Source: a virus. From it: a DNA stretch of 64,000 nt. This document shows, in pieces, positions 5,347 to 62,660 of this stretch; position 1 is the stretch's first letter; each line of letters opens with the position of its first letter. The stretch is from the IMG/VR virus record IMGVR_UViG_3300045988_090087. The stretch is one strand, 5' to 3'. The position numbers and the translations under genes were made by a program. Under the pieces are notes generated by a model that did not search any database, was not told where the DNA came from, and saw only the letters and a list, made by a program, of their open reading frames with translations.

Positions 5347-5856
5347 ATGGAAAAGAATATCGTAAAAAATGGAACTAAAGTAATCCTCTTTGCATTAGAT
5401 ACAGAGGATACAAGTGTGACTGGTGTTATTACTGGTCATTGGTCAACTATGTATGGCAAACTCATGTATAAGTGTCACTATAAAGAGCTTGATGGTATTG
5501 AAGGAGATCTTGATAACCTCATGAGAGAAAACTTTGAGGTTGTTCCTAATAAGTTCATTAACTTAACACCTCACACCATCACTCTCAATAATGGTACAGA
5601 ATACCATGCATCAGGTAAAGTTGCTCGTGTCACTAACAAGTTCAGCAATTTTTGCTGTGGTATTTCCACAGTGTTCTATGGTGAGATTGAGAATCTCCCA
5701 GAGCCTGAAGAAGGTACAATCTATATAGTATCAGCAATGGTACTAGCAGCTGCTAAAAACAAAGGCAGAACGGATGTAGTTGCTCCTGCAACAGGTCATC
5801 CAGATTGTATCCGAAAGGACGGATTTATCGTATCCGTTCCAGGATTCGTAAGATAA
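5347..5856 (+). CDS. Hypothetical protein (conserved-looking C-terminal half)
   Basis: ORF track; an AACACATTAAC motif lies 4 nt upstream; GC is above the local background. Confidence 0.65.
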   Translation: MEKNIVKNGTKVILFALDTEDTSVTGVITGHWSTMYGKLMYKCHYKELDGIEGDLDNLMRENFEVVPNKFINLTPHTITLNNGTEYHASGKVARVTNKFSNFCCGISTVFYGEIENLPEPEEGTIYIVSAMVLAAAKNKGRTDVVAPATGHPDCIRKDGFIVSVPGFVR

Positions 5857-5947
5857 TTATTCATTATAACTCCAGTAAATAAAAGCATTGTATCAGGGTT
5901 GTAACCTGACTGGAGTTCTATTGTTTAACACATTAACACATAAAAAA

Positions 5948-6322
5948 ATGATAAAAGTATTGTTTAAATCAGAGGAATTGCTCATAGCAGCAGACTCTGA
6001 GAGTGCGGTGGTTTACGGAAACACCACAAAAAATACCGTAATAGAGTACCTCAGCAATCTTACTCCAAAGAATGGTGAAGAAGCGATGAGCATTATTATG
6101 CTAATCATGTTACTCGCTACAAGTAAGTATGTGGTAGCTAAACACATTAAAGTTACCACTAAAACAGAAGTGGTTGTAAAAACAGCTAAATCTTCAGTAG
6201 TTAAAACTGCTGAGGATGCTATCCGCATTGCCTCTAAGTTCGGTCTTAAGGCAGAAGTGCAAAGAGAGCTTGATAATGGCGCTACACCACTAGAAGCTCT
6301 TAAAGAGTGGGATATCATTTGA
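5948..6322 (+). CDS. Hypothetical protein
   Basis: ORF track 5888..6322. The first ATG is at 5948 (MIKVLF...), preceded by AACACATTAAC. Confidence 0.6.
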   Translation: MIKVLFKSEELLIAADSESAVVYGNTTKNTVIEYLSNLTPKNGEEAMSIIMLIMLLATSKYVVAKHIKVTTKTEVVVKTAKSSVVKTAEDAIRIASKFGLKAEVQRELDNGATPLEALKEWDII

Positions 6323-12120: not shown

Positions 12121-12192
12121 GGCACTATCGTCTAGCTGGTTAGGACGTAACTTTTCAAAGTTAAAAGGCGATTTCGAGCATCGCTAGTGCTA
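12121..12192 (+). tRNA. tRNA-Glu-like (TTC) with irregular anticodon arm
   Basis: Glu-type D arm TCGTCTAGCTGGTTAGGAC. The anticodon arm is TAAC-TTTTCAAA-GTTA (4 bp with an 8-nt loop, or 5 bp with a 6-nt loop). T arm GCGAT-TTCGAGC-ATCGC. Confidence 0.6.
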
Positions 12193-12271
12193 CTCTTCCG
12201 TATTTAAAAAACTAATACGATTAATGTTTAAAATATAAAGTCAGCGGACTTTATAACGTTAAAGAGTTGTT

Positions 12272-14434: not shown

Positions 14435-14506
14435 AAATGTGTAGCTCAATAGCTAGAGCGTCTATCGTAGAGTAGAAGGTTGGCAGTTCAAATCTGTCCG
14501 CATTTC
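14435..14506 (+). tRNA. tRNA-like gene, anticodon undetermined (irregular anticodon arm)
   Basis: Acceptor AAATGTG/CGCATTT; D arm GCTC-AATAGCTA-GAGC; T arm GGCAG-TTCAAAT-CTGTC. The central part folds only as TCTA-TCGTAGAG-TAGA. Confidence 0.5.
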
Positions 14507-14548
14507 CTTTTTCTATCATTATTTTAATTTTTAATTTATTAAAAATAA

Positions 14549-26208: not shown

Positions 26209-26230
26209 AAATAAAAAAAAATAAAAAAAT

Positions 26231-26440
26231 ATGAATAAACTTTGGATATTACCAACAATTTGTTTTATAATTGTTTTAGCTTGGTCAGTTCCTAGCTACT
26301 ATTATCAGAAAGCAAAAATTCTGGAATTGCAAATAATTGTAGATAGACAGTCAAATGCTATTCAGCAACTTGAAAAAGAGAAGAATAATACTGAAGTAAC
26401 TATTCCACAGTATTTAGATAGCCTGCCTGGAGGTGATTAA
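26231..26440 (+). CDS. Membrane-anchored small protein
   Basis: N-terminal TM segment LWILPTICFIIVLAWSV. Confidence 0.55.
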   Translation: MNKLWILPTICFIIVLAWSVPSYYYQKAKILELQIIVDRQSNAIQQLEKEKNNTEVTIPQYLDSLPGGD

Positions 26441-26451
26441 GTATTTATAAT

Positions 26452-26544
26452 ATGAATACAGATATTCAATTTGTAATTCTATTCTTTATTATGATAGGAA
26501 TATTAATTGTTTCTATGACTTTTTTATTGTATTATATAAGTTAA
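26452..26544 (+). CDS. Tiny hydrophobic peptide (30 aa)
   Basis: Hand-translated: MNTDIQFVILFFIMIGILIVSMTFLLYYIS. Confidence 0.3.
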   Translation: MNTDIQFVILFFIMIGILIVSMTFLLYYIS

Positions 26545-26549
26545 TTGCT

Positions 26550-27176
26550 ATGTATTTAGAAGGAGATAAATGGAAAAATTGGCACACTAGATGTTCTGAT
26601 ACTGCCATTAAAGAGAACAAAAGTGAAGAAGATACTAAACTAAGTACTATATCAGTGTCTAAATTACTTGAGTATGCACATACTGCATTGCATCATTGTG
26701 AGATTAATAATTTAGACCCTTATAAAGTTCCAGTATTTCTTACATTAGAGCGTGATAATAATTTGTATTCTAATATTGGTTTAGGTATATGTTGTAGTAG
26801 TCAGTTAGGTACTTATGTAACTTTAGGGTCTTCAGACTATTATAAAATGTCCTATGTTGCTCCGGATTCTAAACCTGAAGTTGGTGAATATTGGAGAAGT
26901 AGAGGTGTAGGTTATGATTTATCTGGTTTTGTAGTATCTAAACTAGCTGGAGAACGTTTAACTAGGCTAGTTAAATATGTACTAAATACAGATGAACCTC
27001 GGTCTCATCTAGATTACAGAGAATTTGAACCTAATTGGATTCAATTCAAGTTTCAAAAAGAAGAATTTAATCTAGAATTACTAGATAAACTCTCAAGAGC
27101 AAATGATAATATAGTTAATGAAGCTATATTAAGACAATGTATGATTAATGATTCCGAAAAAGAAACAGATTTATAA
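26550..27176 (+). CDS. Hypothetical protein
   Basis: ORF track. Confidence 0.65.
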   Translation: MYLEGDKWKNWHTRCSDTAIKENKSEEDTKLSTISVSKLLEYAHTALHHCEINNLDPYKVPVFLTLERDNNLYSNIGLGICCSSQLGTYVTLGSSDYYKMSYVAPDSKPEVGEYWRSRGVGYDLSGFVVSKLAGERLTRLVKYVLNTDEPRSHLDYREFEPNWIQFKFQKEEFNLELLDKLSRANDNIVNEAILRQCMINDSEKETDL

Positions 27177-28136: not shown

Positions 28137-28403
28137 ATGGGTAAACAAATTTGGTTGCAAGATGGCAACGTTTTTAGCCAGGGTAGTGCGACAACAGTAT
28201 CTCATCCTGAAGGATTACCGAAAGGTATTTATGAAGTAAAAGTCTCAATGACTGGATTTTACTTAAGTAAAATCGCTGAGTCTTTTACGTTTGATTACAA
28301 ACTGTATGGTCTAAACCAAAAATTTATTGATTATGTCTTAAAGACATATGAGAACACTACAGGAAATTTAGGTGTTCTGCTAGATGGAATCAAAGGAACT
28401 GGT
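28137..28403 (+). CDS. AAA+ ATPase, exon 1 (ends inside Walker A: ...GIKGTG)
   Basis: The ORF stops 3 codons after GTGK. The Walker A continuation (KTVTAKEL...), Walker B and sensor motifs are in-frame at 29715. Confidence 0.7.
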
Positions 28404-29714
28404 AAAATTTAAGCAAATTCAGTAAGCTTAAATTTTTAAAAATTTTATATTTATTTGGATTTAATAAAATTTCATATATATTATAGTAATATTAATTTTA
28501 ACTATATGAATATGAAATTTGTAATTAATGAAGAATTAGGAGAAAAAATTAAGACTTTGTACTTAATAGATGGATTAAGTTGTACTAAGATTGGTAAAGA
28601 GGTTGGAATTTCTACTTCTACTATAAGTTCATTTCTAAAAAGAAATGGAATTGAAGTAGTTAATAAACAAAACAAATTATTATTTGATCTAGATAAAGAT
28701 ATTATTCCTAAATATAAGCAAGGGATAAGTTTATCTAAATTAGCTAAAGAGTATCATACTTCTATCCAAACTTTGTCTAGAAAATTAAAAGCTAAAGGGA
28801 TTGAAATAATCAATCATCAAAATGAAACTAAATTTAATGAGCATATCTTCGATGTTATAGATACTGAAGAAAAAGCTTATTGGTTAGGGTTTATATTTGC
28901 TGATGGTTATATTTCATCAAGAGATAACGGTTTTGAACTATCTTTAAAAGGCTCTGATATTGAACACTTACATAAATTTAATAAGTTTATGGAGCATAAT
29001 AAAGATAATGTCAAATTAGGGGAAGTTAAAAATAAAGATAAAACTTTTTTAAGGTGTCGCTGGGGAATAGTCAATAAGCACTTATGGAATACTCTAAATA
29101 ATTTAGGATGTACTCCAAGAAAAAGTTTAACTCTTCAATTTCCTAATATTTCTGAAGAATTAGAAATTCCTTTTATTAGAGGATACTTTGACGGTGATGG
29201 TTGTTTAAGTTACTATTAGAAGACAAAAATTTTACCAAAAGCTTCATTTTTAGGAACTAGACAATTTTTAGTAAAGATACAAGCAATATTAAATAATTTT
29301 AATATAAAAAGTTCTTTAGTAAAAGATACACGAATGGAAAATACTCTAGTATTAAATGTATCTTCAACAAATTCTTCAGATTTTTTAGACTTAGTATATA
29401 ATAATAGTTCCATTTATTTAGACAGAAAATATAAAAGATATAAAATTTTTAAAACTTGCCGTTCTAAACAGGAATGTTTAGAATTATTAGCGGGTGAAAA
29501 CGGGGAAGGCTGTGATGCTAATCCCGTGGTAAATGAAGATAGTAACGAATCTTCATCACTGTAACGCGTAGAAGTTGAAACTCTTATAAGAGAATATAAT
29601 ACTTCCAAGAGCGCCCGCTCTCCCAATCATTTGAATGGAGAAAAAGGTACGCTGAGCTATAACAAATAAGAAGTTATAGAAATATAGATAAAAAGCTATA
29701 TGATAACAATACTG
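28404..29714 (+). mobile_element. Group I-type intron (1311 nt) with a LAGLIDADG ORF, inserted in the Walker A codons
   Basis: The exon ends GGT (U) and the intron ends CTG (G). Joining restores GGT-AAA-ACA-GTT (G-K-T-V). The 3' ~120 nt is homologous to the helicase intron. Confidence 0.65.
28506..29564 (+). CDS. LAGLIDADG homing endonuclease with two N-terminal HTH modules; one in-frame TAG (29217-29219)
   Basis: YWLGFIFADGYI and IRGYFDGDGCL motifs. ORFs 28455..29219 and 29334..29564 share a frame that is open across the TAG, and the C-terminal part continues the LAGLIDADG fold pattern. Confidence 0.7.
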
Positions 29715-30602
29715 AAAACAGTTACCGCAAAGGAACTTTGTAATCGTTTACAGCTTCCTGTAATCTTAGTGCAATCAATGGGTGTTGATACTAATAGTAA
29801 ATTAATAAAATATTTATCTACATCTATTGATTTTGACTGTATCTTCTTCTTTGATGAATATGAGAAAGAATTTAAAAATTCTTCTGATGTTCTTTCTTTC
29901 ATGGATGGTACTTATAACTCTATTTATCGTAAGGTATTTTTACTTACTACTAATGAGTTAAATGTAGACCCAAATCTTCTTGGTAGACCTTCTAGAATAA
30001 GATATAAAAAGTCTTTCAGTAATCTTTCTGAGGAAGTTACTAGAGAGATTCTTAACGATATCTTGGAAGATAAAACTGCTATAGAAAAGGTTATAGAGTT
30101 AACTCATTCTATGAATATTATTACTATAGACTTAATTAAAGCTATAGCAACTGAAATTAATATTCATGGAGTAGAAGCTCTTCCTAATATTAAAGAAACC
30201 TTTAATATTGAATTCTCTAGATTTACTTATTTGTATAGAGAAGTACAAATCAGACATTGTGACTTGAAATTTACTCCTGAAAATATAAAGAATATATTAA
30301 AAGCTTTTTATAAGTTTAAAGAAATTAAAAAGAAAGATTGGGAGAAATATACTCAGGAAGAAATAAAATTCTATAACGAATGGTCTACTAAGTTCAATGA
30401 GGATTATGGTTCCACTACTGAGGATAAAGAGTTAAAATATCTGGAACCTGGAGATTATTTTGAGGATGATCGTATATTGATGGTAAGTATTAAAGAAAAA
30501 TATGTAGTAACTATGACTGATTATGGGAATATTAGAATATATATAATTAATAGTTGCTATTCTACAAGTAAAGCTACAGGTCTTGTAAATTACGAATTAT
30601 AA
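29715..30602 (+). CDS. AAA+ ATPase, exon 2
   Basis: KTVTAKELCNRL...; Walker B CIFFFDEYE; LLTTN; GRPSRI arginine. Confidence 0.7.
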   Translation, partial: KTVTAKELCNRLQLPVILVQSMGVDTNSKLIKYLSTSIDFDCIFFFDEYEKEFKNSSDVLSFMDGTYNSIYRKVFLLTTNELNVDPNLLGRPSRIRYKKSFSNLSEEVTREILNDILEDKTAIEKVIELTHSMNIITIDLIKAIATEINIHGVEALPNIKETFNIEFSRFTYLYREVQIRHCDLKFTPENIKNILKAFYKFKEIKKKDWEKYTQEEIKFYNEWSTKFNEDYGSTTEDKELKYLEPGDYFEDDRILMVSIKEKYVVTMTDYGNIRIYIINSCYSTSKATGLVNYEL

Positions 30603-30680: not shown

Positions 30681-32234
30681 ATGGAACATTTAGTTCTTAT
30701 TGGTGTTATCGCAGTCGTTATTATTGTACTGCTTGTTATTATTGCTACAATGTATGTTAAAGCTCCTCCTTCGATGGCGTACATTCTTTCAGGTTTTCGT
30801 AAGGAGCCACGAGTACTTATCGGTGGTGGTGGAGTAAAAATTCCTGTACTTGAACGATTAGATAAAGTATATCTTGGTCAAGTAACAGTTGATGTTAAGA
30901 CTTCACAACCAGTTCCTACTCATGATTTCTTGGATGTAATGGTAGATGCCGTATGTAAAGTTAGGGTAAAACCTGATACAGAAGGCACTAGACTTGCAGC
31001 TAAGAACTTCTTGAATATGAATTCTGTGCAGATTGCTGCTCAGGTGAAAGATTCTTTGGAGGGTAATATGCGTGAAGTAGTAGGTTCTCTTGACTTAATT
31101 AAGATTAACACTGATAGAGATGCATTCTCTGATGAAATTCAGAAGAAAGCAGCTCCTGATATGGCTAAGTTAGGTCTTGAGATTTTGTCTTGCAATATTC
31201 AGAATATTACTGATGAGAAAGGCTTGATCCGTGATTTGGGAGCTGATAATACAGCAGCTATTCAGAAAAATGCTAAGATTACTCGTGCTAATGCTGATAG
31301 AGACGTAGCTAAGGCTCAAGCTGAGGCTGACAATGAAGCTAATGAAGCACGAGTAAAGGCTGACACCATTATTGCTGAACGTAATAATGAATTAGCTATT
31401 AAGAAAGCTGAACTGAAGAGATTATCTGATATTAAGAAGGCTGAATCTGATGCTGCGTATAAGATTCAGCAGCAGGAGCAGCAGAAAACTATTAATATCA
31501 AGACTGTAGATGCTGATATTGAGAAGACTCGTAAAGAACAGACCTTGTCTGAGGAGAAGATTAAAATTAAGCAGAATGAGTATCTTGCAGATGTAAATGC
31601 TAAGGCTGATGCTGATAAGTATCAGACAGAGATTGATGCTCAGGCTGCTCTGGAGAAGCAGAAGCGTGAGGCTGAGGCTGAAGCTTATAAGGCAGAGCAA
31701 ACTGCTAAGGCTATAAAAGCTAAGGCTGAAGCTAGTCGTTATTCTCAAGAGCAGGAAGCAGCAGGTATTCGTGCTAAGGGTGAAGCTGAAGCATATGCTA
31801 CTCAGCAGACTTTGACTGCTGAAGCTGAAGGTACTAAGGCTAAACTTTTGGCAGAAGCTGAAGGTGTGAAGGCTAAGGGTCTTGCAGAAGCTGAGGCTAT
31901 GCAGAAGAAGGCTGAAGCATACAGTAAATATGGCTCTATTGCTGTAATTGACATGCTTTCTAAACTTAATGAGAAAGTTCTTCCTGATATGGCTAAGTAT
32001 ATTGCTGAGCCTATGAGTAAGATTGGCAATATGACAGTTTATGGAACTAATGGTTCTGAGGCTTCTGGTATTTCTGGTAATGTGCCTGCTATTATTAAGC
32101 AAACCCGTGACATTGTAAAAGATGCCACAGGTGTAGATATGGCAGACATTATGAAGGCTAACACCATTGATGCTAAGGTTAACAAGAATGTTAACGTTAA
32201 TGGCGACGTAGAAAACACCAATGTAAATGTATAA
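30681..32234 (+). CDS. SPFH/flotillin-like membrane protein
   Basis: An N-terminal TM segment, an SPFH core (GGGVKIPVLERLDKVYLGQVTVDV...), then a long A/E/K-rich coiled coil. Confidence 0.75.
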   Translation: MEHLVLIGVIAVVIIVLLVIIATMYVKAPPSMAYILSGFRKEPRVLIGGGGVKIPVLERLDKVYLGQVTVDVKTSQPVPTHDFLDVMVDAVCKVRVKPDTEGTRLAAKNFLNMNSVQIAAQVKDSLEGNMREVVGSLDLIKINTDRDAFSDEIQKKAAPDMAKLGLEILSCNIQNITDEKGLIRDLGADNTAAIQKNAKITRANADRDVAKAQAEADNEANEARVKADTIIAERNNELAIKKAELKRLSDIKKAESDAAYKIQQQEQQKTINIKTVDADIEKTRKEQTLSEEKIKIKQNEYLADVNAKADADKYQTEIDAQAALEKQKREAEAEAYKAEQTAKAIKAKAEASRYSQEQEAAGIRAKGEAEAYATQQTLTAEAEGTKAKLLAEAEGVKAKGLAEAEAMQKKAEAYSKYGSIAVIDMLSKLNEKVLPDMAKYIAEPMSKIGNMTVYGTNGSEASGISGNVPAIIKQTRDIVKDATGVDMADIMKANTIDAKVNKNVNVNGDVENTNVNV

Positions 32235-36559: not shown

Positions 36560-36633
36560 GGGGCGTCGGCTCAAGTGGTCAGCACCTGCTTTGCACGCAG
36601 ACATTCTTAGGAGTTCGAATCTCCTACGCTCCA
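36560..36633 (+). tRNA. tRNA-Ala (TGC)
   Basis: GGGGCGT/ACGCTCC with G3-U70; loop TTTGCAC; T arm AGGAG-TTCGAAT-CTCCT. Confidence 0.75.
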
Positions 36634-36648
36634 CTAAAAAATATAAGT

Positions 36649-37392
36649 ATGAACATTAAAGAACTTACAAATAAAGAATTAATAAAATTATATAAGGAGC
36701 ATAAATGTTCTTTATAGGCTATAGAAAAAGATTTAGGATTAACTAAAAATTAGGCAGGAAGATTATTCAGAGCAAGAAATATTGATTATAAAAGTTTGAA
36801 AAATCAATATTTAATAGATTTAGAAATGGATTATTATAACCATCCAAATGTTTGTAAATATTGTGGAAATCCTTTACCTTACAAATATAAGGGAAGTTTT
36901 TGTAATCAATCTTGTGCGGCTTCCTATAATAACATTTAGAGAAGGACTTCAGAACATAAAAATAAAGGACCCCAAAAAAATTATCATTGTTTAAACTGTG
37001 GTAAAGAACTCAAATATGTTTCTGGAAATTATATGAAATATTGTTCTGCAAAATGTCAGACTGAATATCAACATAAAGAGTATATTAAACGATGGAAAAA
37101 TGGTGAAGAGACAGGTGTTACTGGTAAAACTGATATATCTACCCATATACGTAAATATTTAAAAGAAAAATTTAATAATTCTTGCCAAAAATGTGGGTGG
37201 AATTAGATAAATTATTTCACAGGTTTAGTACCATTACAAATCCATCATATTGATGGAGATTGTTTAAATAATAAAGAAAAAAATCTTTAGTTACTATGTC
37301 CTAATTGTCACGCTTTAACCGAGAATTATGGCAGTAGAAACAAAAATTCAAAGAGAACTTCTAGAAGAATACATTATGAAAATAACTATTGA
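36649..37392 (+). CDS. Free-standing HNH homing endonuclease with five in-frame TAG codons
   Basis: A 247-codon frame whose only interruptions are TAGs at 36715, 36751, 36937, 37204 and 37288. Paralog of 1088..1906: CQKCGW..LQIHHIDGDCLNNKEKNL-TAG-LLCPNCHA. Confidence 0.65.
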
Positions 37393-40660: not shown

Positions 40661-41160
40661 ACTTAGTTTGGTTAAAGTTAATAAAACGAATTTTAACTCA
40701 TAAGTATTATGTTGCTAAATATTGCTTTCAAATAGGATTATATTGGCAAGGTATTACTCATGATTTATCTAAATTTAGTTTTATAGAATTTTCAAGAGCT
40801 ATTAAGTATTGGGATGATAAAATGAGCTCTTTAGCGAATGAGTGCAGAATATTAGGATATAGTCAAACATTCCTTCACCATAGAGGAAGAAATCCTCATC
40901 ATTATGAATATTGGATACATTCCTTAGATAATGGAGGAATTCCTGCTAAAATGCCTAAAAAATATGTTCTAGAACTTATATGTGATTATTTAGCAGCAGC
41001 TAAAACATATGGAGCTGACCCTAGAAGAGAATATACATGGTGGCTTAAACAACAACCTCATATGAAAATCCACAAAAAAACTAAGAGTTATATAACTGAA
41101 GTGTTTTATAAATATAGTATAGGTTTAACATTAAAAGAATCAATTAATGGAAATTATTAA
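40657..41160 (+). CDS. Hypothetical His-rich protein (HHRGRNPHHYEYW motif)
   Basis: ORF track; immediately upstream of the NAD cluster. Confidence 0.6.
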   Translation: MNLVWLKLIKRILTHKYYVAKYCFQIGLYWQGITHDLSKFSFIEFSRAIKYWDDKMSSLANECRILGYSQTFLHHRGRNPHHYEYWIHSLDNGGIPAKMPKKYVLELICDYLAAAKTYGADPRREYTWWLKQQPHMKIHKKTKSYITEVFYKYSIGLTLKESINGNY

Positions 41161-42700
41161 TGCAACTGATGGCTATAAGCTTGGTCATCATCGTATGTAC
41201 CCAGAGGGTACACAAATGGTCTATAGTAACTGGACTCCTAGAAGTAATCGTTACTTCCCAGAAGCTACAGAAGGTTCTGTAGTATTTGGTATTCAGTACT
41301 TTGTAAAGAAGTATTTGATAGAGGAATTTAACAAATGGTTTGCTCTTCCTAAGGAAGAAGCTATTAAGCAATTTGCTTATCGTGTAGGTAACTTTGTAGA
41401 CCTTAATCAGGTTGGGACAAAGCATATTGAAGAACTTTATGATTTAGGATATCTTCCTATTGAAATTAAAGCTCTTCCTGAAGGTTCTATCTGTCCTATA
41501 AGAGTACCTATGATGACTATTAAGAACACTCTTCCTGATTTCTTCTGGTTGACTAATTACTTGGAAACTTTAATTAGTTGTACTCTATGGCTTCCTTGTA
41601 CTTCTGCAACAAGTGCTCGTCTCTATAAAAAGAGACTTATGGAACATGCTAGAAAGACTGGATTCCCAGAAGATGTAAATCTAGGTTTCTCTTGTCACGA
41701 TTTCTCAATGAGAGGTATGGCAGGACTTGATGCTGCTATTATTTCAGGTATGGCTCATATGACTTCATTCTGTGGTAGTGAAACAATTCCTGCTATTGAA
41801 GCAGTAGAGCATTATTACGATGCAGATGTTACTGAAGAACTTGTAGCTGCAACTGTCCCGGCTTCGGAACATTCAGTAATGTGCGCAGGAGGTGAGGATG
41901 GTGAGATTGAAACATACCGCCGTCTTATTAATGACTTATATCCAACAGGTATTATCTCAATAGTATCTGATACTTGGGATTTTTGGCAGGTAGTTGAGAA
42001 ATTCTTGCCTAAGCTTAAGGCAGATATTATGAAACGTGTTGGTCGAGTAGTAATTCGTCCTGATAGTGGTGACCCAGTGGATATTATTTGTGGTCTTCGT
42101 ACAAATCCTCACTATCATACTGCTATGAAAGAGGGTAAGTACTACTGTGATTTCAATCCATTTATGGATGATGATGAGAGTCATTATGTAGAAGTATCTG
42201 AAGGTCAGTATTATGGAGCATATTATATGCTAGGTAAAATCTTTGGATGGAATACTACTGTAAATGATTATCGTTATCCAAGTACTAAAGTAGGTTTGCT
42301 CTATGGAGATTCTATCACTCTGGAGCGTCAGCGTGATATCTATGCTAGATTGGAAAACGCTCATATGGCAGCTTGTAATCTTGTTCTAGGTATTGGATCT
42401 TATACTTATCAGTTTAAGAGTAGAGATTCTTTGGGTTTCGCAGTTAAAGCGACCGCATGCACCATTAATGGTAAACTTATAGAAATCTATAAGCACCCAA
42501 AGACTGATGATGGAACAAAGAACTCTCTTAAAGGTCTTATAAGAGTTGAAAAAGAGGATGGTAAGTATGTTGCTTATGACCAGCAGACTAAGGATGCAGA
42601 ACTACAAGGTTGTCTTAAAACAGTCTTTGTAGATGGAGAATTAGTAAGAGAATATTCTCTTTCTGAAATTCGTGAACGTGTAAATTCAACATTAGTATGA
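41147..42700 (+). CDS. Nicotinamide phosphoribosyltransferase-family enzyme (NAMPT/NadV, or Namat of NARP1)
   Basis: N-terminal NATDGYKLGHHRMYP...VVFGIQYFVKKYL is the NAMPT signature; length is about 517 aa. Confidence 0.8.
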   Translation: MEIINATDGYKLGHHRMYPEGTQMVYSNWTPRSNRYFPEATEGSVVFGIQYFVKKYLIEEFNKWFALPKEEAIKQFAYRVGNFVDLNQVGTKHIEELYDLGYLPIEIKALPEGSICPIRVPMMTIKNTLPDFFWLTNYLETLISCTLWLPCTSATSARLYKKRLMEHARKTGFPEDVNLGFSCHDFSMRGMAGLDAAIISGMAHMTSFCGSETIPAIEAVEHYYDADVTEELVAATVPASEHSVMCAGGEDGEIETYRRLINDLYPTGIISIVSDTWDFWQVVEKFLPKLKADIMKRVGRVVIRPDSGDPVDIICGLRTNPHYHTAMKEGKYYCDFNPFMDDDESHYVEVSEGQYYGAYYMLGKIFGWNTTVNDYRYPSTKVGLLYGDSITLERQRDIYARLENAHMAACNLVLGIGSYTYQFKSRDSLGFAVKATACTINGKLIEIYKHPKTDDGTKNSLKGLIRVEKEDGKYVAYDQQTKDAELQGCLKTVFVDGELVREYSLSEIRERVNSTLV

Positions 42701-43191
42701 TAAAAATTGTTAGTGGAGATTTACTCCAATCAAATTTACCTCTTATAGCCCATCAAACTAATTGTTTAGGAGTAATGGGGGCTGGTATAGCTAAAGCTAT
42801 TAAAAATAAATGGAATAGCGTATATACACAATATGCTAATTATTGTAAAAATTTTGAATACTCTAAAAATTTATTAGGGAAATGTCAAATATGTGTAACT
42901 GGAGAATTTCCTATTAAATTTGTAGCTAATTTATTTGGAGAATATTCTTTTACTGAATCAGTAGCTCCTTTTGAAAATAGACATACTGATTATAATGCTC
43001 TTAAAAAAGCTTTGTTAAATTTAAAAGCTTTTTGTGAAGACGAAGAAGTAACAGAAGTAGGTATTCCTTATAAATTAGGATGTGGATTAGCAGGAGGAGA
43101 TTGGGATGGAGTAGTTTATCCTATGCTTCAAGAACTTTTTGCTAATGATTCAACAATAACTCTTTATATTTATAAATTATGCAACAATTAA
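42697..43191 (+). CDS. Macro-domain protein (ADP-ribose binding or hydrolase)
   Basis: SGDLL...IAHQTNCLGVMGAGIAKAI...GIPYKLGCGLAGGDW. Confidence 0.7.
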   Translation: MIKIVSGDLLQSNLPLIAHQTNCLGVMGAGIAKAIKNKWNSVYTQYANYCKNFEYSKNLLGKCQICVTGEFPIKFVANLFGEYSFTESVAPFENRHTDYNALKKALLNLKAFCEDEEVTEVGIPYKLGCGLAGGDWDGVVYPMLQELFANDSTITLYIYKLCNN

Positions 43192-43988
43192 ATTTAGTAT
43201 ATCTAGAAGATAGTGATATTAAATATTCTATCTCTAGATTTCCTGATGGGGAAGTCCAAATTTCATTAGAAGAATTTAGTCATAAGGAACAAGTATTAGT
43301 AAAATGTAGAATTACTAATGCTGAAGACTTATTTATACTTATGCAAGTTTTAGATATCCTTGATAGACATGAAGTTCTATATAAAATAAATATCTATTAC
43401 TTAATGAGTATGAGAATGGATCGAGTAATGGTTTTCAATAGACCATTTACTTTAAAAATAGTCTTAAATGTATTAAAAAATTGTAATGCAGAGACTATTG
43501 AAATTTTAGAACCTCATTCTGATGTTTATTATGATCCTAGATTCGGAGTTAAATTCATGCCTCTTTACGCTGAAAAGAATCCATCTAATAATACTTGGAA
43601 AGAATTTCAATTAGTTTTCCCAGATGCTGGAGCTGAGAAGAGAAATGAATTCAGATATAATCGTAAAGCAATTACTTGTAGTAAAGTTCGAGATTTAACT
43701 ACTGGAAGAATCTTAGAGATTAAAATAGACAATCCTGAAATAATTAGTGATAAACCATTATTAATTCTTGATGATTTATGTGATGGTGGAGGCACTTTTT
43801 GTGGTATTGCTAAAGCATTTAATATTTTAGGTGTTCCTAAGGAACGTTTGAATATCGCAGTTACTCATATGGTAAATCCTAAGGGTATAAAGAATCTATC
43901 AGAAAACTTTAATCACGTATGGTTTACTAATTCTTATAAAGACTGGGACAATCTTCCTGAGAATGTTACAATGTTTAAGGTTATCTAA
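43179..43988 (+). CDS. Ribose-phosphate pyrophosphokinase-like enzyme (Prs, or Adps of NARP1)
   Basis: FPDGEVQISLEE...DLFILMQVLDIL...LILDDLCDGGGT (PRTase loop). Confidence 0.7.
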   Translation: MQQLNLVYLEDSDIKYSISRFPDGEVQISLEEFSHKEQVLVKCRITNAEDLFILMQVLDILDRHEVLYKINIYYLMSMRMDRVMVFNRPFTLKIVLNVLKNCNAETIEILEPHSDVYYDPRFGVKFMPLYAEKNPSNNTWKEFQLVFPDAGAEKRNEFRYNRKAITCSKVRDLTTGRILEIKIDNPEIISDKPLLILDDLCDGGGTFCGIAKAFNILGVPKERLNIAVTHMVNPKGIKNLSENFNHVWFTNSYKDWDNLPENVTMFKVI

Positions 43989-47697: not shown

Positions 47698-48684
47698 ATG
47701 ACAACAGTTTTAGGTGATAAACTCAATCAAGCTTTTGAAGCTAAGAATAATGATGTAGAAACATTTCTCTGGAAAGGTTCCAGAAAAATTGTAGATGGTG
47801 AACGCATTCAGTCTTCCATGAAAATGGTAGATATGACTGAAGAAGAATTACGTAAAGCATATAAACATTGTGAATCAATGCTTTATAGTGACAACTATGA
47901 AAATCCTGGACGACGAGTTTTGTTGGAACAGATTGAAGATCAAAGAACTCGCTGTAATGCTGAGTTGTTCTTAATTTGGCTATTGTACCCAGGTGAAGGT
48001 AGTACTAGACAAGGTATTGTAAGAACTAGTTTCTTTAATATGCTCAATCAGCAGATTACTGCTCAGGCAGAACAGTTTGCTAAAGAGAATGCAGAAAGTG
48101 GTGAGGGCGAGACAAATGTTAGTGCTATTGCAGAGACTCTCTTTAAAGAGTGGACTCTTAATGATATTATGAATAGTGATGAAGATTCATTTACCATGTT
48201 TGCTTCATTACCATTGTATATCGTTAGAGAAGCTTGTTTATCTGCTTTAGGTAAATGTGTCCGTAAACACATTACTCTTACATTTATTACTGAGCTTGGA
48301 TTGTGGTTTACACGTTCTGAGTTATTAGAATTAAATAAAAAAGACGAGAATGGTCGTTTAGTAGATAGAATTAAGCAAGTTGCTGAACTTCTAAATATTA
48401 AATTGAGAGACCCTAAGAATCCTGAAGACAGAAAAGGTCTTGTTTTAAAAATTGATGATAGAAAAGGCTTAACTCTAAAAGAGTTTAGCGCAATGCTTAC
48501 CTTCCGTAAGGATAAATATGATAAGCGTTATAATGATCTGACTAAAGTACAATTGGAAACCTTAAGAGATAAAGTTTTACTGCATCTCGAAAATAAGGTT
48601 AGATGGCAAGCTTCAGAGTGGGAGAAGCGTATTAAACAAATCAAAGCAGTAGCTGATTATAATGGCTACAAACTCTCTGATTGA
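47698..48684 (+). CDS. Hypothetical protein (328 aa), upstream of the helicase
   Basis: ORF track. Confidence 0.65.
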   Translation: MTTVLGDKLNQAFEAKNNDVETFLWKGSRKIVDGERIQSSMKMVDMTEEELRKAYKHCESMLYSDNYENPGRRVLLEQIEDQRTRCNAELFLIWLLYPGEGSTRQGIVRTSFFNMLNQQITAQAEQFAKENAESGEGETNVSAIAETLFKEWTLNDIMNSDEDSFTMFASLPLYIVREACLSALGKCVRKHITLTFITELGLWFTRSELLELNKKDENGRLVDRIKQVAELLNIKLRDPKNPEDRKGLVLKIDDRKGLTLKEFSAMLTFRKDKYDKRYNDLTKVQLETLRDKVLLHLENKVRWQASEWEKRIKQIKAVADYNGYKLSD

Positions 48685-48793
48685 AGGAGAACTATTTCAT
48701 AAAATCACTAGAGATGAACGACAAGAAGAGTGTCGTAAAAAATGGATAAAAAATCGTTGTGTGGGGACAATAGTTGCGTCTACTGGCTTTGGT
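48662..48793 (+). CDS. SF2 (DEAH) helicase, exon 1 (ends ...ASTGFG, inside motif I)
   Basis: Motif I is broken after GFG. The rest of the ORF (to 48967) does not resemble a helicase. Confidence 0.6.
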
Positions 48794-49142
48794 ACTGTAA
48801 AAGCGGGTCATATACCTGTTAATTACGATGCCGTTCCGATAGAGGAATCTTCGGAATTATCATCGAGCAAAATCGGTAGAAGCCCTATAGAGGGTAATAC
48901 CGAGGTAATAGAAGAAATTAAAGAATCTTCTACACCGTACAGCATAGAGAATGAAACTAATAAATAGTCTAGTTAATAGCTAGACTATTTTTATTAGAAT
49001 ATAATTTCTCCACGAGTGTTCGATACCCCAACTGAAATAAGTGGGTAAAAATTTATGCGGGACTTACTAGTAATAGTAAGAAGTATAGATAAAAAACTAT
49101 ACGATAACAAAATCGAAATCCAGAATAGGACTAAACTGTATT
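48794..49142 (+). mobile_element. ORF-less intron-like insertion (~349 nt) in the Walker A codons of the helicase; boundaries approximate
   Basis: Removing it restores GGT-AAA-ACA-GTG (GFGKTVLKHF...LIIVPT). Blocks 48996-49005 and 49084-49110 match the AAA+ intron. No G precedes the inferred 3' junction. Confidence 0.5.
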
Positions 49143-50273
49143 AAAACAGTGTTAAAACACTTTCCACAATATCGAGTACTAATAATTGTGCCAACAGAAA
49201 CTTTACAAAAACAATGGTGTGGTCATATAGATTCTAATGGGCTAGGATTAAGTTGTGATGTACAAATAATAAACACTGTAATAAAACATCCTGCCAAATA
49301 TGATCTTTTAGTACTGGATGAAGCGCATAGATATGCAGCTGAGACTTTTGTAAGATTATTTGAAGTAGTAAAATACCAATTTATCTTAGGTCTTACAGCT
49401 ACTTTCGAGCGTCTTGATGGTAGGGATAAAATATTAGCAAAATACTGCCCAGTAATTGATACTATTGATATTAATACTTGTCTTGCAAATGGTTGGGTTA
49501 GTCCATATAAAGAATATCTAGTCTTAGTAAATGTTGATGATTTAGAAGAATATGAAAAAATAAATAAAGAATTCATTTCTCATTTTGAATTCTTCGGATT
49601 CTCTTGGGAGTTAGTTAATAAATTAGCTGGTCCTATGGGTTGGCGAAATAAGCTACTCCTAAGAGATTCTATGTGTAGTGATCCTAATAAAAAGTCTGAA
49701 GTATTACAAAGTATAAATTATCATGCTATCAGATTTTGGTCTACTATGCATGAGAAAAAAGCTTTCATAAATAATCATCCAAAGAAAATTGAAATAGTAA
49801 AGAAAATTATAGAAGCTAGAAAGGATAAAAAAATAATAACTTTTGCTAATAATATTAAAATGGCAGAAAAAATTCCTAATGCTACTGTATATTCTAGTAG
49901 AACTTCTAAGAAAAGAAGTGCTACAGCTATTGAAGATTTTAACTCTGGAAAGGTAACTCTATTATCTACAGTAAAAAAAGCTGATGAAGGACTTGATGTA
50001 AAAGGTCTTTCTGTAGCTATTATATTTGGATTAGATAGTTCAACTACTAGAGCTTGTCAACGGAGAGGAAGATCAATCCGCTTTGAAAAAGGTAAGACAG
50101 CAGAAATATTCAATATAGTATTAAATAGAACTCAAGAAACTAAGTGGTTTTATGATTCTCATAAGGGAGATTCTTTTATAACTATAGACGAATCAGAATT
50201 GGATAAAGTATTACAAGGTAAAGACTTTACCCCAGGTGAAAAGATAGTTCCTAAATTTGATTTTAGATTCTGA
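49143..50273 (+). CDS. SF2 (DEAH) helicase, exon 2
   Basis: LIIVPT (Ia), LVLDEAHRY (II), GLTATFER (III), QRRGRSIR (VI). Confidence 0.75.
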   Translation, partial: KTVLKHFPQYRVLIIVPTETLQKQWCGHIDSNGLGLSCDVQIINTVIKHPAKYDLLVLDEAHRYAAETFVRLFEVVKYQFILGLTATFERLDGRDKILAKYCPVIDTIDINTCLANGWVSPYKEYLVLVNVDDLEEYEKINKEFISHFEFFGFSWELVNKLAGPMGWRNKLLLRDSMCSDPNKKSEVLQSINYHAIRFWSTMHEKKAFINNHPKKIEIVKKIIEARKDKKIITFANNIKMAEKIPNATVYSSRTSKKRSATAIEDFNSGKVTLLSTVKKADEGLDVKGLSVAIIFGLDSSTTRACQRRGRSIRFEKGKTAEIFNIVLNRTQETKWFYDSHKGDSFITIDESELDKVLQGKDFTPGEKIVPKFDFRF

Positions 50274-50351: not shown

Positions 50352-50963
50352 ATGTTTGATTTAAACATTGATGAAGAAATAACAATTTTAGAAAAATATA
50401 ATATTACTCCTACTGAATTATTTGTTATTAAAGCTATTAATGCTTATATAGAAGATTATTCAGAAGATTATCTTCGTAGGTATTTGGCTATTGATAAAAA
50501 GTATGTAGGAAGTTTTATAGATATACTTAAATCTTTACAAGATAAAAGTCTTATCCTTAAAAGTTATAAAATTATTCCAGGAATGAAATTAGTTCCTGAA
50601 GAGATACCATTTAATAAAAACTTCCTAAAATGTTTAGCTAAGAGTTCCTTTGAAATGGGAAAAGAACTTAGAGAACATTATCCTAGATTTAGAAATATTA
50701 ATGGATGCTTAACTAGTATGCTAGGTGTTTCTAAAAAGTTTAATAGTCTTGAAGATGCTTATAGAACTTATGGAAAGAAAATCCATTGGAATGAAGAACT
50801 TCATAAAAAGATTATTGATTTACTAGATTGGGAAGCTAATACTGATAATGGTATTATTAATTATAGCTTAGCTACATTTATTGTAGATGAAAAATGGGAA
50901 GACCTTGAAGCTTTAAAGAATGGAGATTCAGGTATGAATTATAATTCAATCACCACTCTGTGA
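50352..50963 (+). CDS. Hypothetical protein (replication module)
   Basis: ORF track. Confidence 0.6.
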   Translation: MFDLNIDEEITILEKYNITPTELFVIKAINAYIEDYSEDYLRRYLAIDKKYVGSFIDILKSLQDKSLILKSYKIIPGMKLVPEEIPFNKNFLKCLAKSSFEMGKELREHYPRFRNINGCLTSMLGVSKKFNSLEDAYRTYGKKIHWNEELHKKIIDLLDWEANTDNGIINYSLATFIVDEKWEDLEALKNGDSGMNYNSITTL

Positions 50964-52042
50964 GTTTAGAAAGTTTTAAACGTTCGATAGAGCTTGGTAG
51001 ACAAGGATTTAATCAAGGATTTAGTATGGGTCTTCCTAAATTGGAAGAATTAATAGGAGGTATTACTAAAAGTACCATGACTCTTTTATTTGCGAGTTCA
51101 GGACAAGGTAAAAGTTCATGTGTATTATATTCTTACATATATGCTCCTTTAAAAGAACATTTAGAAGATAATAAATTAAAAATTATTTTCTTTGCTCTTG
51201 AAATGAAAGAAGACTTTATTATAGCTAAATTATTAAGTACCTATTTATATGATACCTATCATATTGTTGTAACTGCTAAACAAATATTATCTATAGGTAA
51301 AGATTATATTTTACCTGATGATTTATATGAGTATGTACAACTAGGATATGATTGGCTAGAAAAAGTATATAAAGTACTAACTATATACGAAGGCTCTTTT
51401 AATTCTGATAAGCTCATAAAAGTTACAATGGAAGAGCTTAAAAAAGAAGGAGAATTTACAGAGAATAAATATATTCCGAAAGACCCTGAAAAAGTAATAC
51501 TTTCAGTAACTGACCATGTTGGATTGATCCAACCATCCAATGGAAGGAACAGAAAAGGAGAAATTGATGATTATACTAATAAATTAGTTATCATTAGAAA
51601 TAAAACAGGATTATCTCCAATTATTGTTATGCAATCCAATAGAGCAGTGGCTAACATGGAAAGAAAAAAGAATGAAGCTTTCATGGAGCCAATGGTGGAG
51701 GATATTAAGGAAACATCCACTGTTTCAGAGAATTCTGAAATTATTTTAGCTGTATATAATCCTCAAGTTGATAAAAGAACAACTTATAGAGGTTACCAAG
51801 TTAAAGAAATGGGTTATAGATTTCGAAGTATTCTTGTACTAAAGTCAAGATATGGAGAAAACCAAGTAGCTGATTGCTGTTTCTTTGACGGAGCAGTAAA
51901 TAAGTGGATGGAAATGCCTAAGCCAGAAGAAATCTTTGATTATTCTAGATATCGAGCTACAAATAACAGTTCAACAGATAATACAATAAAGAATGAAGAT
52001 AAAGATGAAAAAGTGAAAAGTAAATTAGACTATAGTTTATGA
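50960..52042 (+). CDS. DnaB-like replicative helicase (RecA-fold domain)
   Basis: Walker A LLFASSGQGKSS; Walker B-like ILSVTDHVGLI; typical length. Confidence 0.65.
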   Translation: MSLESFKRSIELGRQGFNQGFSMGLPKLEELIGGITKSTMTLLFASSGQGKSSCVLYSYIYAPLKEHLEDNKLKIIFFALEMKEDFIIAKLLSTYLYDTYHIVVTAKQILSIGKDYILPDDLYEYVQLGYDWLEKVYKVLTIYEGSFNSDKLIKVTMEELKKEGEFTENKYIPKDPEKVILSVTDHVGLIQPSNGRNRKGEIDDYTNKLVIIRNKTGLSPIIVMQSNRAVANMERKKNEAFMEPMVEDIKETSTVSENSEIILAVYNPQVDKRTTYRGYQVKEMGYRFRSILVLKSRYGENQVADCCFFDGAVNKWMEMPKPEEIFDYSRYRATNNSSTDNTIKNEDKDEKVKSKLDYSL

Positions 52043-61885: not shown

Positions 61886-62660
61886 ATTTACTTTAGAAGA
61901 AGTATTAAAAGGAAAAGCTACTAGTATTAAGGGTAAAGATTATCTTCCTACTAGAGGATATATTGAGCCTTTTCTGGAAAGAGTTCAAAAATTAACTTCT
62001 GATATTAGAGTACATGTAAAATTACCTGATCAAATCACTTATAATAAAAATGGTGATATAGATACTGCTGATTTAACTTTTAATAGAGTATGGTTAGAAG
62101 CAGTATTACCAAATGAATATCAATATGCTAATCATCAGCAGGTAATTGGTATGGTATATGGTCTAGACACTAGAAAAGCTGTTGTAAAAATGTATTCAGG
62201 TGCTCTGAATTCTGCATGTACGAATCTTTGTGTATTTAATCCAGATAGTTTAGTAGTTAATGAAATAGAACCAGAGACTCCAATTAATTTTAAACCAATT
62301 ACAAGACTTGTAGAGCAAACTACAGAGATAGGAGTTACTCTCAGACGTTTTGCAGATACAGATTTTGACTATACTAATAAAAGTTTTGTAAATGAACATT
62401 TGGGTAGATGGATTCGTAACTGTATGTCTGAATCTGTTGATAATGGTTTTGGTAAAGTAAAATTAGCTACATCAACTCCTATTGATGCTTATAAATTATT
62501 ATTTGATAAAAAAGATAGTCCATATCTTATATCAGATGATAACGCAAATATGTTTACTGTATATAATGCATTCACTCAAATTATAACTGATTCTATGAAA
62601 AAGGATATTATGAATCAGGTTGAGAAAACTTTACTAGTAAACAGCATTTTAACTTTGTAA
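61866..62660 (+). CDS. Hypothetical protein (possibly DUF932-like)
   Basis: ORF track; the SGALNSACTNLCVFN motif is only weakly reminiscent of that family. Confidence 0.55.
   Translation: MERMPTEFTLEEVLKGKATSIKGKDYLPTRGYIEPFLERVQKLTSDIRVHVKLPDQITYNKNGDIDTADLTFNRVWLEAVLPNEYQYANHQQVIGMVYGLDTRKAVVKMYSGALNSACTNLCVFNPDSLVVNEIEPETPINFKPITRLVEQTTEIGVTLRRFADTDFDYTNKSFVNEHLGRWIRNCMSESVDNGFGKVKLATSTPIDAYKLLFDKKDSPYLISDDNANMFTVYNAFTQIITDSMKKDIMNQVEKTLLVNSILTL

Follow-up and report, generated by a model that had tools for sequence, protein, structure and literature searches.

The T4 td intron with its endonuclease I-TevI (group IA2) lies in a phage protein-coding gene and has its endonuclease open reading frame (ORF) looped out of the ribozyme core. 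Dense introns and inteins, along with TAG recoding, have been reported from gut crAss-like (Delta/Zeta) and Jug phages (PMC7886860; PMC12880540), for which the excerpts considered here name MCP, PolB, primase, ATP_43b, TerL and nrdD as interrupted genes. Inteins also occupy the P-loop of unrelated ATPases (DnaB, MCM, RFC, RecA and UvrD) (Novikova et al. 2016, PMC4760082). Group I introns are assumed to transpose into new genes, but documented examples are rare, the best so far being introns of ribosomal DNA (rDNA), whose ectopic spread has been ascribed to reverse splicing (review PMC3984707). Here we describe two inserts in a stretch of viral DNA of 64,000 nucleotides (nt) (IMG/VR virus record IMGVR_UViG_3300045988_090087; the whole stretch is called the window below), one in an AAA+ ATPase gene and the other in an SF2 helicase gene. 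Both lie in phase 0, immediately after the Gly codon GGT and before the Lys codon of Walker A. The two very probably represent one family of group I introns, a selfish RNA element for which the P-loop serves as a landing site time and again. The element itself is of an ordinary kind (a group I intron with a LAGLIDADG gene); its targeting pattern is unusual and well documented.

As far as the same excerpts on crAss-like and Jug phages go, the similarities comprise the gut habitat, the interruption of core replication and packaging genes, and the joint presence of LAGLIDADG and HNH endonucleases, late-gene TAG recoding and inteins; these excerpts mention no intron lineage that returns to the G^K of Walker A in different ATPases and no guide match to GGU^AA (^ marks the insertion point). 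With the P-loop inteins, the family has in common an endonuclease-bearing selfish element in the most conserved ATP-binding motif, and the hosts overlap (DnaB-like, UvrD and AAA+). Inteins, however, splice as protein and need a downstream Cys, Ser or Thr, whereas here splicing would take place at the RNA level and the guide must match GGU. As with rDNA introns, the positions at which relatives are inserted differ and have no more in common than a short guide match, but the targets here are different protein-coding genes with a shared coding motif, and one endonuclease family travels along. In a full-text literature search, no account turned up of group I introns of one lineage returning to the Walker A G^K, which is weak evidence given the incomplete coverage of the search.

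The interrupted genes and their introns are the following:
28137 to 28403, plus strand: AAA+ ATPase exon 1, from the ORF, ending in ...GIKGTG (GGA ACT GGT)
28404 to 29714, plus strand: group I intron of the AAA+ gene, 1311 nt, with a LAGLIDADG gene in the P1 loop and omega-G at 29714
29715 to 30602, plus strand: AAA+ ATPase exon 2, with AAA ACA GTT (KTV) at its start
48662 to 48793, plus strand: SF2 helicase exon 1, ending in ...ASTGFG (GGC TTT GGT)
48794 to 49115, plus strand: group I intron of the helicase gene, 322 nt, ORF-less, with omega-G at 49115
49116 to 50273, plus strand: SF2 helicase exon 2, supported by Pfam (ResIII and Helicase_C) and by intron-less loci
49116 to 49142, plus strand: first 27 nt of helicase exon 2 (KSRIGLNCI), contiguous in 11 intron-less alleles

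The AAA+ ORF is interrupted after the GGT at 28401-28403, with a TAA two codons into the insert, and its frame is picked up again at 29715 with AAAACAGTT (AAA ACA GTT ACC), giving GTG^KTVTAKEL across the predicted junction GGT^AAAACAGTT (28403/29715). The spliced protein of 384 amino acids (aa) matches Pfam AAA at residues 80-185 (6e-11), and intron-less alleles read uninterrupted GGAACTGGT^AAAACAGTTAC. A preliminary description of this DNA had already divided the gene between the Walker A Gly and Lys codons, with the start at 28137, the break at 28403 and exon 2 at 29715, and all of this holds. The same is true of the break it placed in the helicase gene (48662 onwards), after the Walker A Gly codon in TTTGGT at 48793, while the 3' junction that it gave for this gene (49142) is 27 nt too far. 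The true end at 49115 follows from two lines of evidence. In the family register, the last intron nucleotide is the G of AAAATCG (49115), 6 to 7 nt past GATAAC. In addition, a search of viral contigs with the spliced helicase (429 aa) gave 11 loci at 98 to 100% aa identity, each exactly 1287 nt long, and these intron-less alleles have an uninterrupted TTTGGT^AAGAGCAGAATAGGACTAAACTGT. Exon 2 opens at 49116 with AAATCCAGAATAGGACTAAACTGTATT, coding KSRIGLNCI, and a synonymous substitution pattern is seen within 49116-49142 in loci L019/L099. The junction is predicted as GGT^AAATCCAGA (48793/49116), the true Walker A sequence is GFGKS, and the spliced helicase matches Pfam ResIII (1e-18) and Helicase_C (2e-15). 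The junction GGT^AAAACAGTG was rejected for the helicase, as the intron would then end in U, the family register would be lost and the 27 nt are present in intron-less alleles. In both genes splicing restores the Walker A pattern [AG]x4GK[ST], as GIKGTGKT and STGFGKS.

The two inserts are homologous over approximately 290 nt (76% pairwise column identity), and the aligned part takes in the 3' end of the LAGLIDADG ORF of the AAA+ intron. The preliminary description had noticed homology at the 3' ends and proposed a pairwise alignment; this alignment is significant and extends so far beyond the 3' tips that the helicase insert can be recognized as an ORF-less derivative of the same element, with 48829-48960 as a leftover of the endonuclease gene 3' end. 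Both motifs that had been reported lie where they were placed, the short AGAATATAAT at 29591 and 48996 and the 27-nt motif at 29683 and 49084, the latter with no chance matches in 100 shuffles. Searching with nhmmer and the family profile gave E values of 7e-56 and 9e-52 for the two introns and no further family copies within the window.

Covariation was counted on 22 nonredundant family members, over 58 pairs in 11 helices (1237 pair cells). Standard pairs filled 91.5% of the cells, against 34 to 47% with the partners slid, a figure that is favored by the fold having been drawn by hand on the helicase intron alone. The compensatory counts are not favored in this way: changes on both sides were found in 38 of the 58 pairs, including six of the seven pairs of P3 and a change from G-C to A-U in P7, and none of 500 shuffles reached any of the measures. 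The core helices come in the canonical group I order (P3/P7 pseudoknot, P4-P5-P6, P8 and P9), accompanied by P2, P7.1 and P9.1. Between P7 and P3' there is one covarying helix (P7.1, compensatory in four of five pairs), and no second helix (P7.2) was found there in the drawn fold; in this model, the single extra covarying helix may point to subgroup IA. The positions of the elements are as follows:
29455 to 29714, plus strand: ribozyme core of the AAA+ intron, with helices from the fold and covariation
29456-29461: AAA+ intron, guide UUGCCG
29462-29483: AAA+ intron, P2
29489-29495 and 29613-29619: AAA+ intron, P3
29500-29504 and 29523-29527: AAA+ intron, P4
29509-29519: AAA+ intron, P5
29528-29560: AAA+ intron, P6/P6a
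29566-29570 and 29648-29652: AAA+ intron, P7
29571-29575 and 29601-29605: AAA+ intron, P7.1
29620-29640: AAA+ intron, P8
29657-29679: AAA+ intron, P9
29683-29700: AAA+ intron, P9.1
48829-48833: helicase intron, guide UGCCG
48834-48856: helicase intron, P2
48862-48868 and 49018-49024: helicase intron, P3
48873-48877 and 48899-48903: helicase intron, P4
48882-48895: helicase intron, P5
48904-48936: helicase intron, P6/P6a
48942-48946 and 49054-49058: helicase intron, P7
48947-48951 and 49006-49010: helicase intron, P7.1
49025-49046: helicase intron, P8
49063-49080: helicase intron, P9
49084-49101: helicase intron, P9.1

P1 joins the exon (N)GGU and the first one or two intron A's to the guide (U)UGCC over 5 to 9 bp, with a U·G pair at the splice site in all 10 resolved junctions (both window introns and eight others). 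The terminal G keeps a constant register, 6 to 7 nt past GATAAC, in all of the approximately 80 members (29714 and 49115 in the window). As far as can be read from sequence, every hallmark of a group I intron is present save the Rfam score. The similarity to td lies in a nearly identical P4-P5-P6 (td AAACGGGGAAC..TCTAG..AGACAATCCCGTGCTAA versus AAAACGGGAAACATCTAGAACAGACAATTCCGTGCTAA in family member L016), in the extra P7.1 helix and in the 3' end, ..AAC A(U/A)AAU(U)G. The differences are the type of endonuclease (LAGLIDADG here, GIY-YIG in td), the location of the ORF (the P1 loop here, P6 in td), the sequence of P7 (GCGUA/UACGC here, GACUA/UAGUC in td) and a P7.2 helix, which is not evident here.

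A perfect 11-bp hairpin (AAAATTTAAGC / GCTTAAATTTT) extends over 28404-28445, from the first nucleotide of the AAA+ intron. It is retained in AAA+ alleles that lack the homing endonuclease gene (HEG), such as L035, and would compete with P1 for the first two A's of the intron. An alternative P1 through the loop of this hairpin (ACUGG with UCAGU) was discarded, as the U at the splice site would remain unpaired and L064 and other members have nothing equivalent; UUGCC was preferred as the guide because it fits all of them. In the helicase intron, the P7.1 loop contains a hairpin of 10 to 11 bp followed by a T-run (48962 to 48990), the counterpart of which lies immediately 3' of the endonuclease stop codon in HEG-containing relatives. 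It could be a terminator or a stability element of the endonuclease message, with the terminator-like flag in the scan being on the minus strand only.

Sister contigs show all four combinations of the two introns (neither, AAA+ only, helicase only and both). Intron-less loci at 89 to 100% aa identity were found for the helicase (1287 nt) and for the AAA+ gene (1149 to 1152 nt), and in the latter gene they include close relatives (L104-L112, L117 and L119) and distant homologs (L120-L142). Excision of 28404-29714 and 48794-49115 gives exactly the intron-less allele sequence of these sister phages. The AAA+ intron is found either as a 1311-nt form or as a HEG-less form of 331 to 332 nt (L035, L068, L115 and L116), and the helicase intron as an ORF-less form of 314 to 386 nt or as a form of 1212 nt with a LAGLIDADG gene (L075, L079, L091 and L095), whose product is 49% identical to the endonuclease of the AAA+ intron. 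The earlier statement that the LAGLIDADG gene is confined to the AAA+ copy is thus correct for the window and does not apply beyond it. The flanks differ as well. Helicase genes with the intron continue with AAATCC or AAATCT, while 10 of the 11 close alleles without it have AAGAGC, coding for the same amino acids, the exception being L089 with AAGACG (Lys-Thr). At the AAA+ site, intron-minus alleles are either cognate (AAAACAGTTAC, in the site GGAACTGGTAAAACAGTTACC) or variant (AAGACGGTCGTT, in ...GGTAAGACGGTCGTT). Taken together, presence, absence and flank differences form the pattern expected of a homing cycle with co-conversion or target immunity.

To delimit the family, IMG/VR viral contigs were searched with a 24-nt pattern from the conserved 3' region, which gave about 80 loci (designated by L and a number); two scans with sub-patterns returned already-known loci only, so that the list should be near complete for this motif. 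All loci have the conserved block ...GATAAC, then the 6 to 7 nt ending in G, and then unrelated coding exons. Judging from these sequences, the family is widespread in human-gut phages and is subgroup IA-like and similar to T4 td. A scan of 185,579 genomes gave only three contigs of metagenome-assembled genomes (Clostridiales, Aeriscardovia and Ca. Coprovivens bins), which leaves the host uncertain. In many members, exon 2 opens with K[ST] in phase 0, and the exon 1s that were located end in the Walker A Gly. The G^K boundary of Walker A is occupied in at least eight nonorthologous genes of P-loop nucleoside triphosphatases (NTPases), with Pfam matches of the host genes (window and relatives) to AAA, ResIII/Helicase_C, DnaB_C and UvrD-helicase. 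The occupied sites are the following:
GIKGTG^KTV: AAA+ gene of the window
GTPGTG^KTS: second AAA gene, L064
STGFG^KSR: ResIII/SF2 gene
GISGSG^KSS: DnaB-like gene
SDSGSG^KSS: DnaB-like gene
ASSGIG^KSS: DnaB-like gene
AISGVG^KST: DnaB-like gene
TAGSG^KTT: UvrD gene
GMAGVG^KTS: Walker A site
GESGRG^KTT: Walker A site

For the sites KTVGTEVW (L027/L041) and VGKT (L057) exon 1 was not located, and they were left out of the count. The preliminary description had proposed a survey of related phages for intron-less alleles and for other P-loop genes carrying the insert, and both were found.

The most informative member is L064, an ORF-less intron with a core 95% identical to that of the window AAA+ intron, although the host proteins are only 27% identical over the ATPase core. 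Its contig also contains an intron-less ortholog (L108) of the window AAA+ gene. The insertion site (GGAACAGGTAAGACGAGC) shares 14 of 17 nt with the window AAA+ site (GGAACWGGT^AARACR). By these comparisons, the L064 copy is a recent transfer between two different AAA+ genes. The spliced window contains 52 Gly-Lys sites of the form GGT^AAR in frame, and two of the three that belong to a Walker A motif are intron occupied (Fisher p = 0.0023). The third is empty:
51107 to 51112, plus strand: empty Walker A GGT^AAA site (SSGQG^KSS) in the DnaB-like helicase gene 50960..52042

In MT835492, a record with 96.6% identity to the window at its AAA+ locus (L146-L148), the ortholog of this DnaB-like gene (72% aa identity) contains a 381-nt ORF-less family intron at ASSGIG^KSS, which is the same site (record positions 26219-26599). 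The proposal that one intron/endonuclease family re-uses the P-loop in nonhomologous genes is therefore supported, more strongly than the preliminary description could show, by the homology of inserts and endonucleases, by the G^K boundary being occupied in these genes, by L064 and by the count of Walker A sites in the window.

The same record has two near-identical family introns, at about 5826-5976 and 61951-62110, that stop after core position ~141 (..AATATAATACT) and run directly into exon 2, with 24 or 2 exon nt missing. One lies in the AAA+ gene and the other in the L064-type AAA gene. Parallel deletion may account for them, or else an error of assembly, the record being marked UNVERIFIED. 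In crAss-type TerL loci (L016, L017, L032, L034 and similar), an intein C-terminus (..ISTHN^C) is found four codons upstream of the family intron (GGCDPY^DHDES), and the sister contigs L004 and L012 have the family intron without the intein.

The endonuclease gene of the AAA+ intron has the following coordinates:
28506 to 29564, plus strand: LAGLIDADG homing endonuclease ORF, 352 codons, in-frame TAG at 29217-29219, identified by Pfam

The ORF contains two helix-turn-helix and two LAGLIDADG motifs (YWLGFIFADGY and FIRGYFDGDG; Pfam LAGLIDADG_3 6.5e-11 and HTH_23), and the TAG at 29217 lies downstream of the second LAGLIDADG motif. The ORF occupies the P1 loop, with the 5' splice site before it and the guide after it, and its last ~36 codons overlap P2-P6 of the ribozyme core. 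The intron endonucleases form one family with 37 to 54% identity. In-frame TAG codons are not peculiar to this gene. In the 60-120 kb part of MT835492, coverage by long ORFs was 11 to 33% with the standard code and 90 to 100% with TAG as sense, which points to late-gene TAG recoding in that phage. A free-standing HNH endonuclease ORF of the window (36649 to 37392, plus strand), located between tRNA clusters, has TAGs at 36715, 36751, 36937, 37204 and 37288, one of them within ...EKNL*LLCPNCH, the usual Gln position in HNH enzymes; this suggests that TAG is read as Gln in this phage. In related endonuclease genes, too, TAG is found aligned with conserved Gln. Altogether, the lineage appears to read TAG as sense, probably as Gln, in which case the TAG at 29217-29219 would not end translation of the endonuclease. 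The earlier reading of this codon as Gln is hence a reasonable one.

A mechanism that would account for the distribution starts with self-splicing of the pre-mRNAs by the two-step, guanosine-initiated pathway. The endonuclease would cut intron-less alleles and drive homing, and the helicase intron has lost its endonuclease gene, which other phages retain. Occasional cleavage or repair at a look-alike P-loop (GGN NNN GGT AAR [AT]CN) could then carry the intron into another ATPase gene. A copy arriving at any GGU^AA(R) would have its P1 and P10 partners ready, and would be splicing competent at once and nonlethal even in an essential motif, which would explain why the P-loop is re-used. We consider the chances evenly balanced that this is a "motif-homing" lineage in the full sense, with the guide UUGCC (for GGU^AA) and the LAGLIDADG endonuclease jointly tuned to the Walker A Gly-Lys codons and hopping among nonorthologous ATPase genes within and between genomes. 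If so, every P-loop NTPase gene of an AT-rich phage would be a ready, splicing-competent target, and the family would be to RNA what the P-loop inteins are to protein.

Several observations weigh against this picture. Splicing is something that we infer, and P10 is short (0 to 4 bp). The group I model of Rfam (RF00028) matched neither window intron at the gathering score or at an E of ≤10, nor any of 20 related loci at an E of ≤1. As the T4 td intron used as a control was detected (40.3 bits, E 2.6e-8), the miss reflects a true departure from the consensus of the curated model, particularly in the sequence of P7, and this blank was the reason for building the structure by hand and testing it by covariation. 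The 12-nt target that had been claimed to be shared by both sites is wrong, as what they have in common is TGGT^AAA, 7 nt. Nearly all sites follow a GGT Gly codon, yet about half of the ~21 distinct sites are not P-loops (for example QG^GDSGP, LG^SR, KG^NN, the capsid-like LG^VKFGY and crAss-type TerL). In a rough neighbor-joining tree the P-loop introns form no clean clade and are mixed with members at other GGT sites, and use of the P-loop may thus have had several origins or have disappeared again. Identity between the two window introns is only ~70-76%, and they do not pair as closest relatives in this tree. No direct jump between these two genes is demonstrated. As for the endonuclease, the TAG at 29217 is common to three diverged copies, and the ratio of synonymous to nonsynonymous changes goes from 12:2 to 16:1 before it to 2:9 to 10:12 after it, a pattern that shows relaxed constraint on the C-terminal half as far as these comparisons reach. 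ARAGORN found no suppressor tRNA (anticodon CUA) in the window or in MT835492, and the window enzyme may therefore be inactive; its activity is uncertain. Finally, the absence of an ORF in the 95%-identical ectopic copy L064 fits reverse splicing equally with endonuclease transfer.

Spread through RNA would mean that the excised intron reverse-splices into an mRNA at GGU+AA and is reverse-transcribed and recombined, with the endonuclease serving for cognate homing only. For the ectopic spread of group I introns this is the textbook explanation (PMC3984707), and the only feature common to all targets, the GGU (+AA) beside the site, is exactly what the conserved guide UUGCC pairs with. The members at sites other than P-loops likewise follow a GGT codon, and not only the latest ectopic copy, L064, but also others (L024, L029 and L048) are ORF-less. 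Against it, of the 52 GGT^AAR sites of the window the Walker A ones alone are occupied, and a 5-nt guide match would need a strong extra filter to achieve this. The 14 of 17 nt shared by the L064 and window AAA+ sites amount to an endonuclease-sized similarity, and the different exon flanks of intron-plus and intron-minus alleles resemble the co-conversion or target immunity of homing at the DNA level. No reverse transcriptase was noticed in the window, whose ORFs had no systematic screen for one. On balance we hold this route to be unlikely. Somewhat doubtful, too, is an explanation without any targeting of P-loops, in which introns survive after GGT codons in widely conserved sequences and the P-loop is simply the commonest of these in phage replication genes. 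The proportion of sites outside P-loops and the lack of monophyly of the P-loop members agree with it, as does the general tendency of homing endonucleases (PMC3984707) and also of inteins (PMC4760082) to settle in conserved motifs. Survivorship, however, leaves unexplained both the identical codon boundary in 8 to 10 different genes and the presence in two AAA+ genes, both with GTGKT, of introns 95% identical to each other; moreover, it is a filter and not a transfer, and some step must still deliver the intron to a new P-loop.

It is extremely improbable, in our view, that the inserts are not spliced at all and that the genes are split or dead, yield two polypeptides, or are rescued by an intein or by translational bypassing. 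The missing Rfam match would suit such a reading, and an ATG at 29700 could start a second polypeptide, but the TAA two codons into the AAA+ insert leaves no room for an intein, and two separate chains cannot reconstitute a Walker A loop that is severed between G and K. The strong covariation of the RNA fold, boundaries that are nucleotide exact compared to intron-less alleles and exons that stay under purifying selection in intron-bearing phages all speak for spliced introns.

One practical consequence of a spliced intron family at the P-loop is that these ATPase genes will be annotated wrongly, as fragments, in gut phage genomes, and the group I model of Rfam does not flag the family. The members offer natural snapshots of cognate sites that are still empty, of variant sites that are immune, of introns that have or lack the endonuclease gene, of a recent move between two different AAA+ genes, and of one codon boundary occupied in AAA+, SF2, SF1/UvrD and DnaB-like genes. 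With this material one can test how endonuclease specificity and guide pairing jointly set where an intron moves, and the endonucleases constitute a natural panel of related LAGLIDADG enzymes with specificities shifted around one motif.

A scan of the whole window with Rfam (E ≤ 0.05) gave tRNAs only. Two tRNA-like genes, at 12121..12193 and 14435..14507, scored 44 and 48 bits with Rfam, and ARAGORN gave them 6-nt anticodon loops (calls 'tc' and 'ta'); a weak additional tRNA match is found at 36560..36633. Among the neighboring genes are those for NAD salvage at 41147..43988 (nicotinamide phosphoribosyltransferase and ribose-phosphate pyrophosphokinase) and one for an SPFH/flotillin-like protein at 30681..32234.

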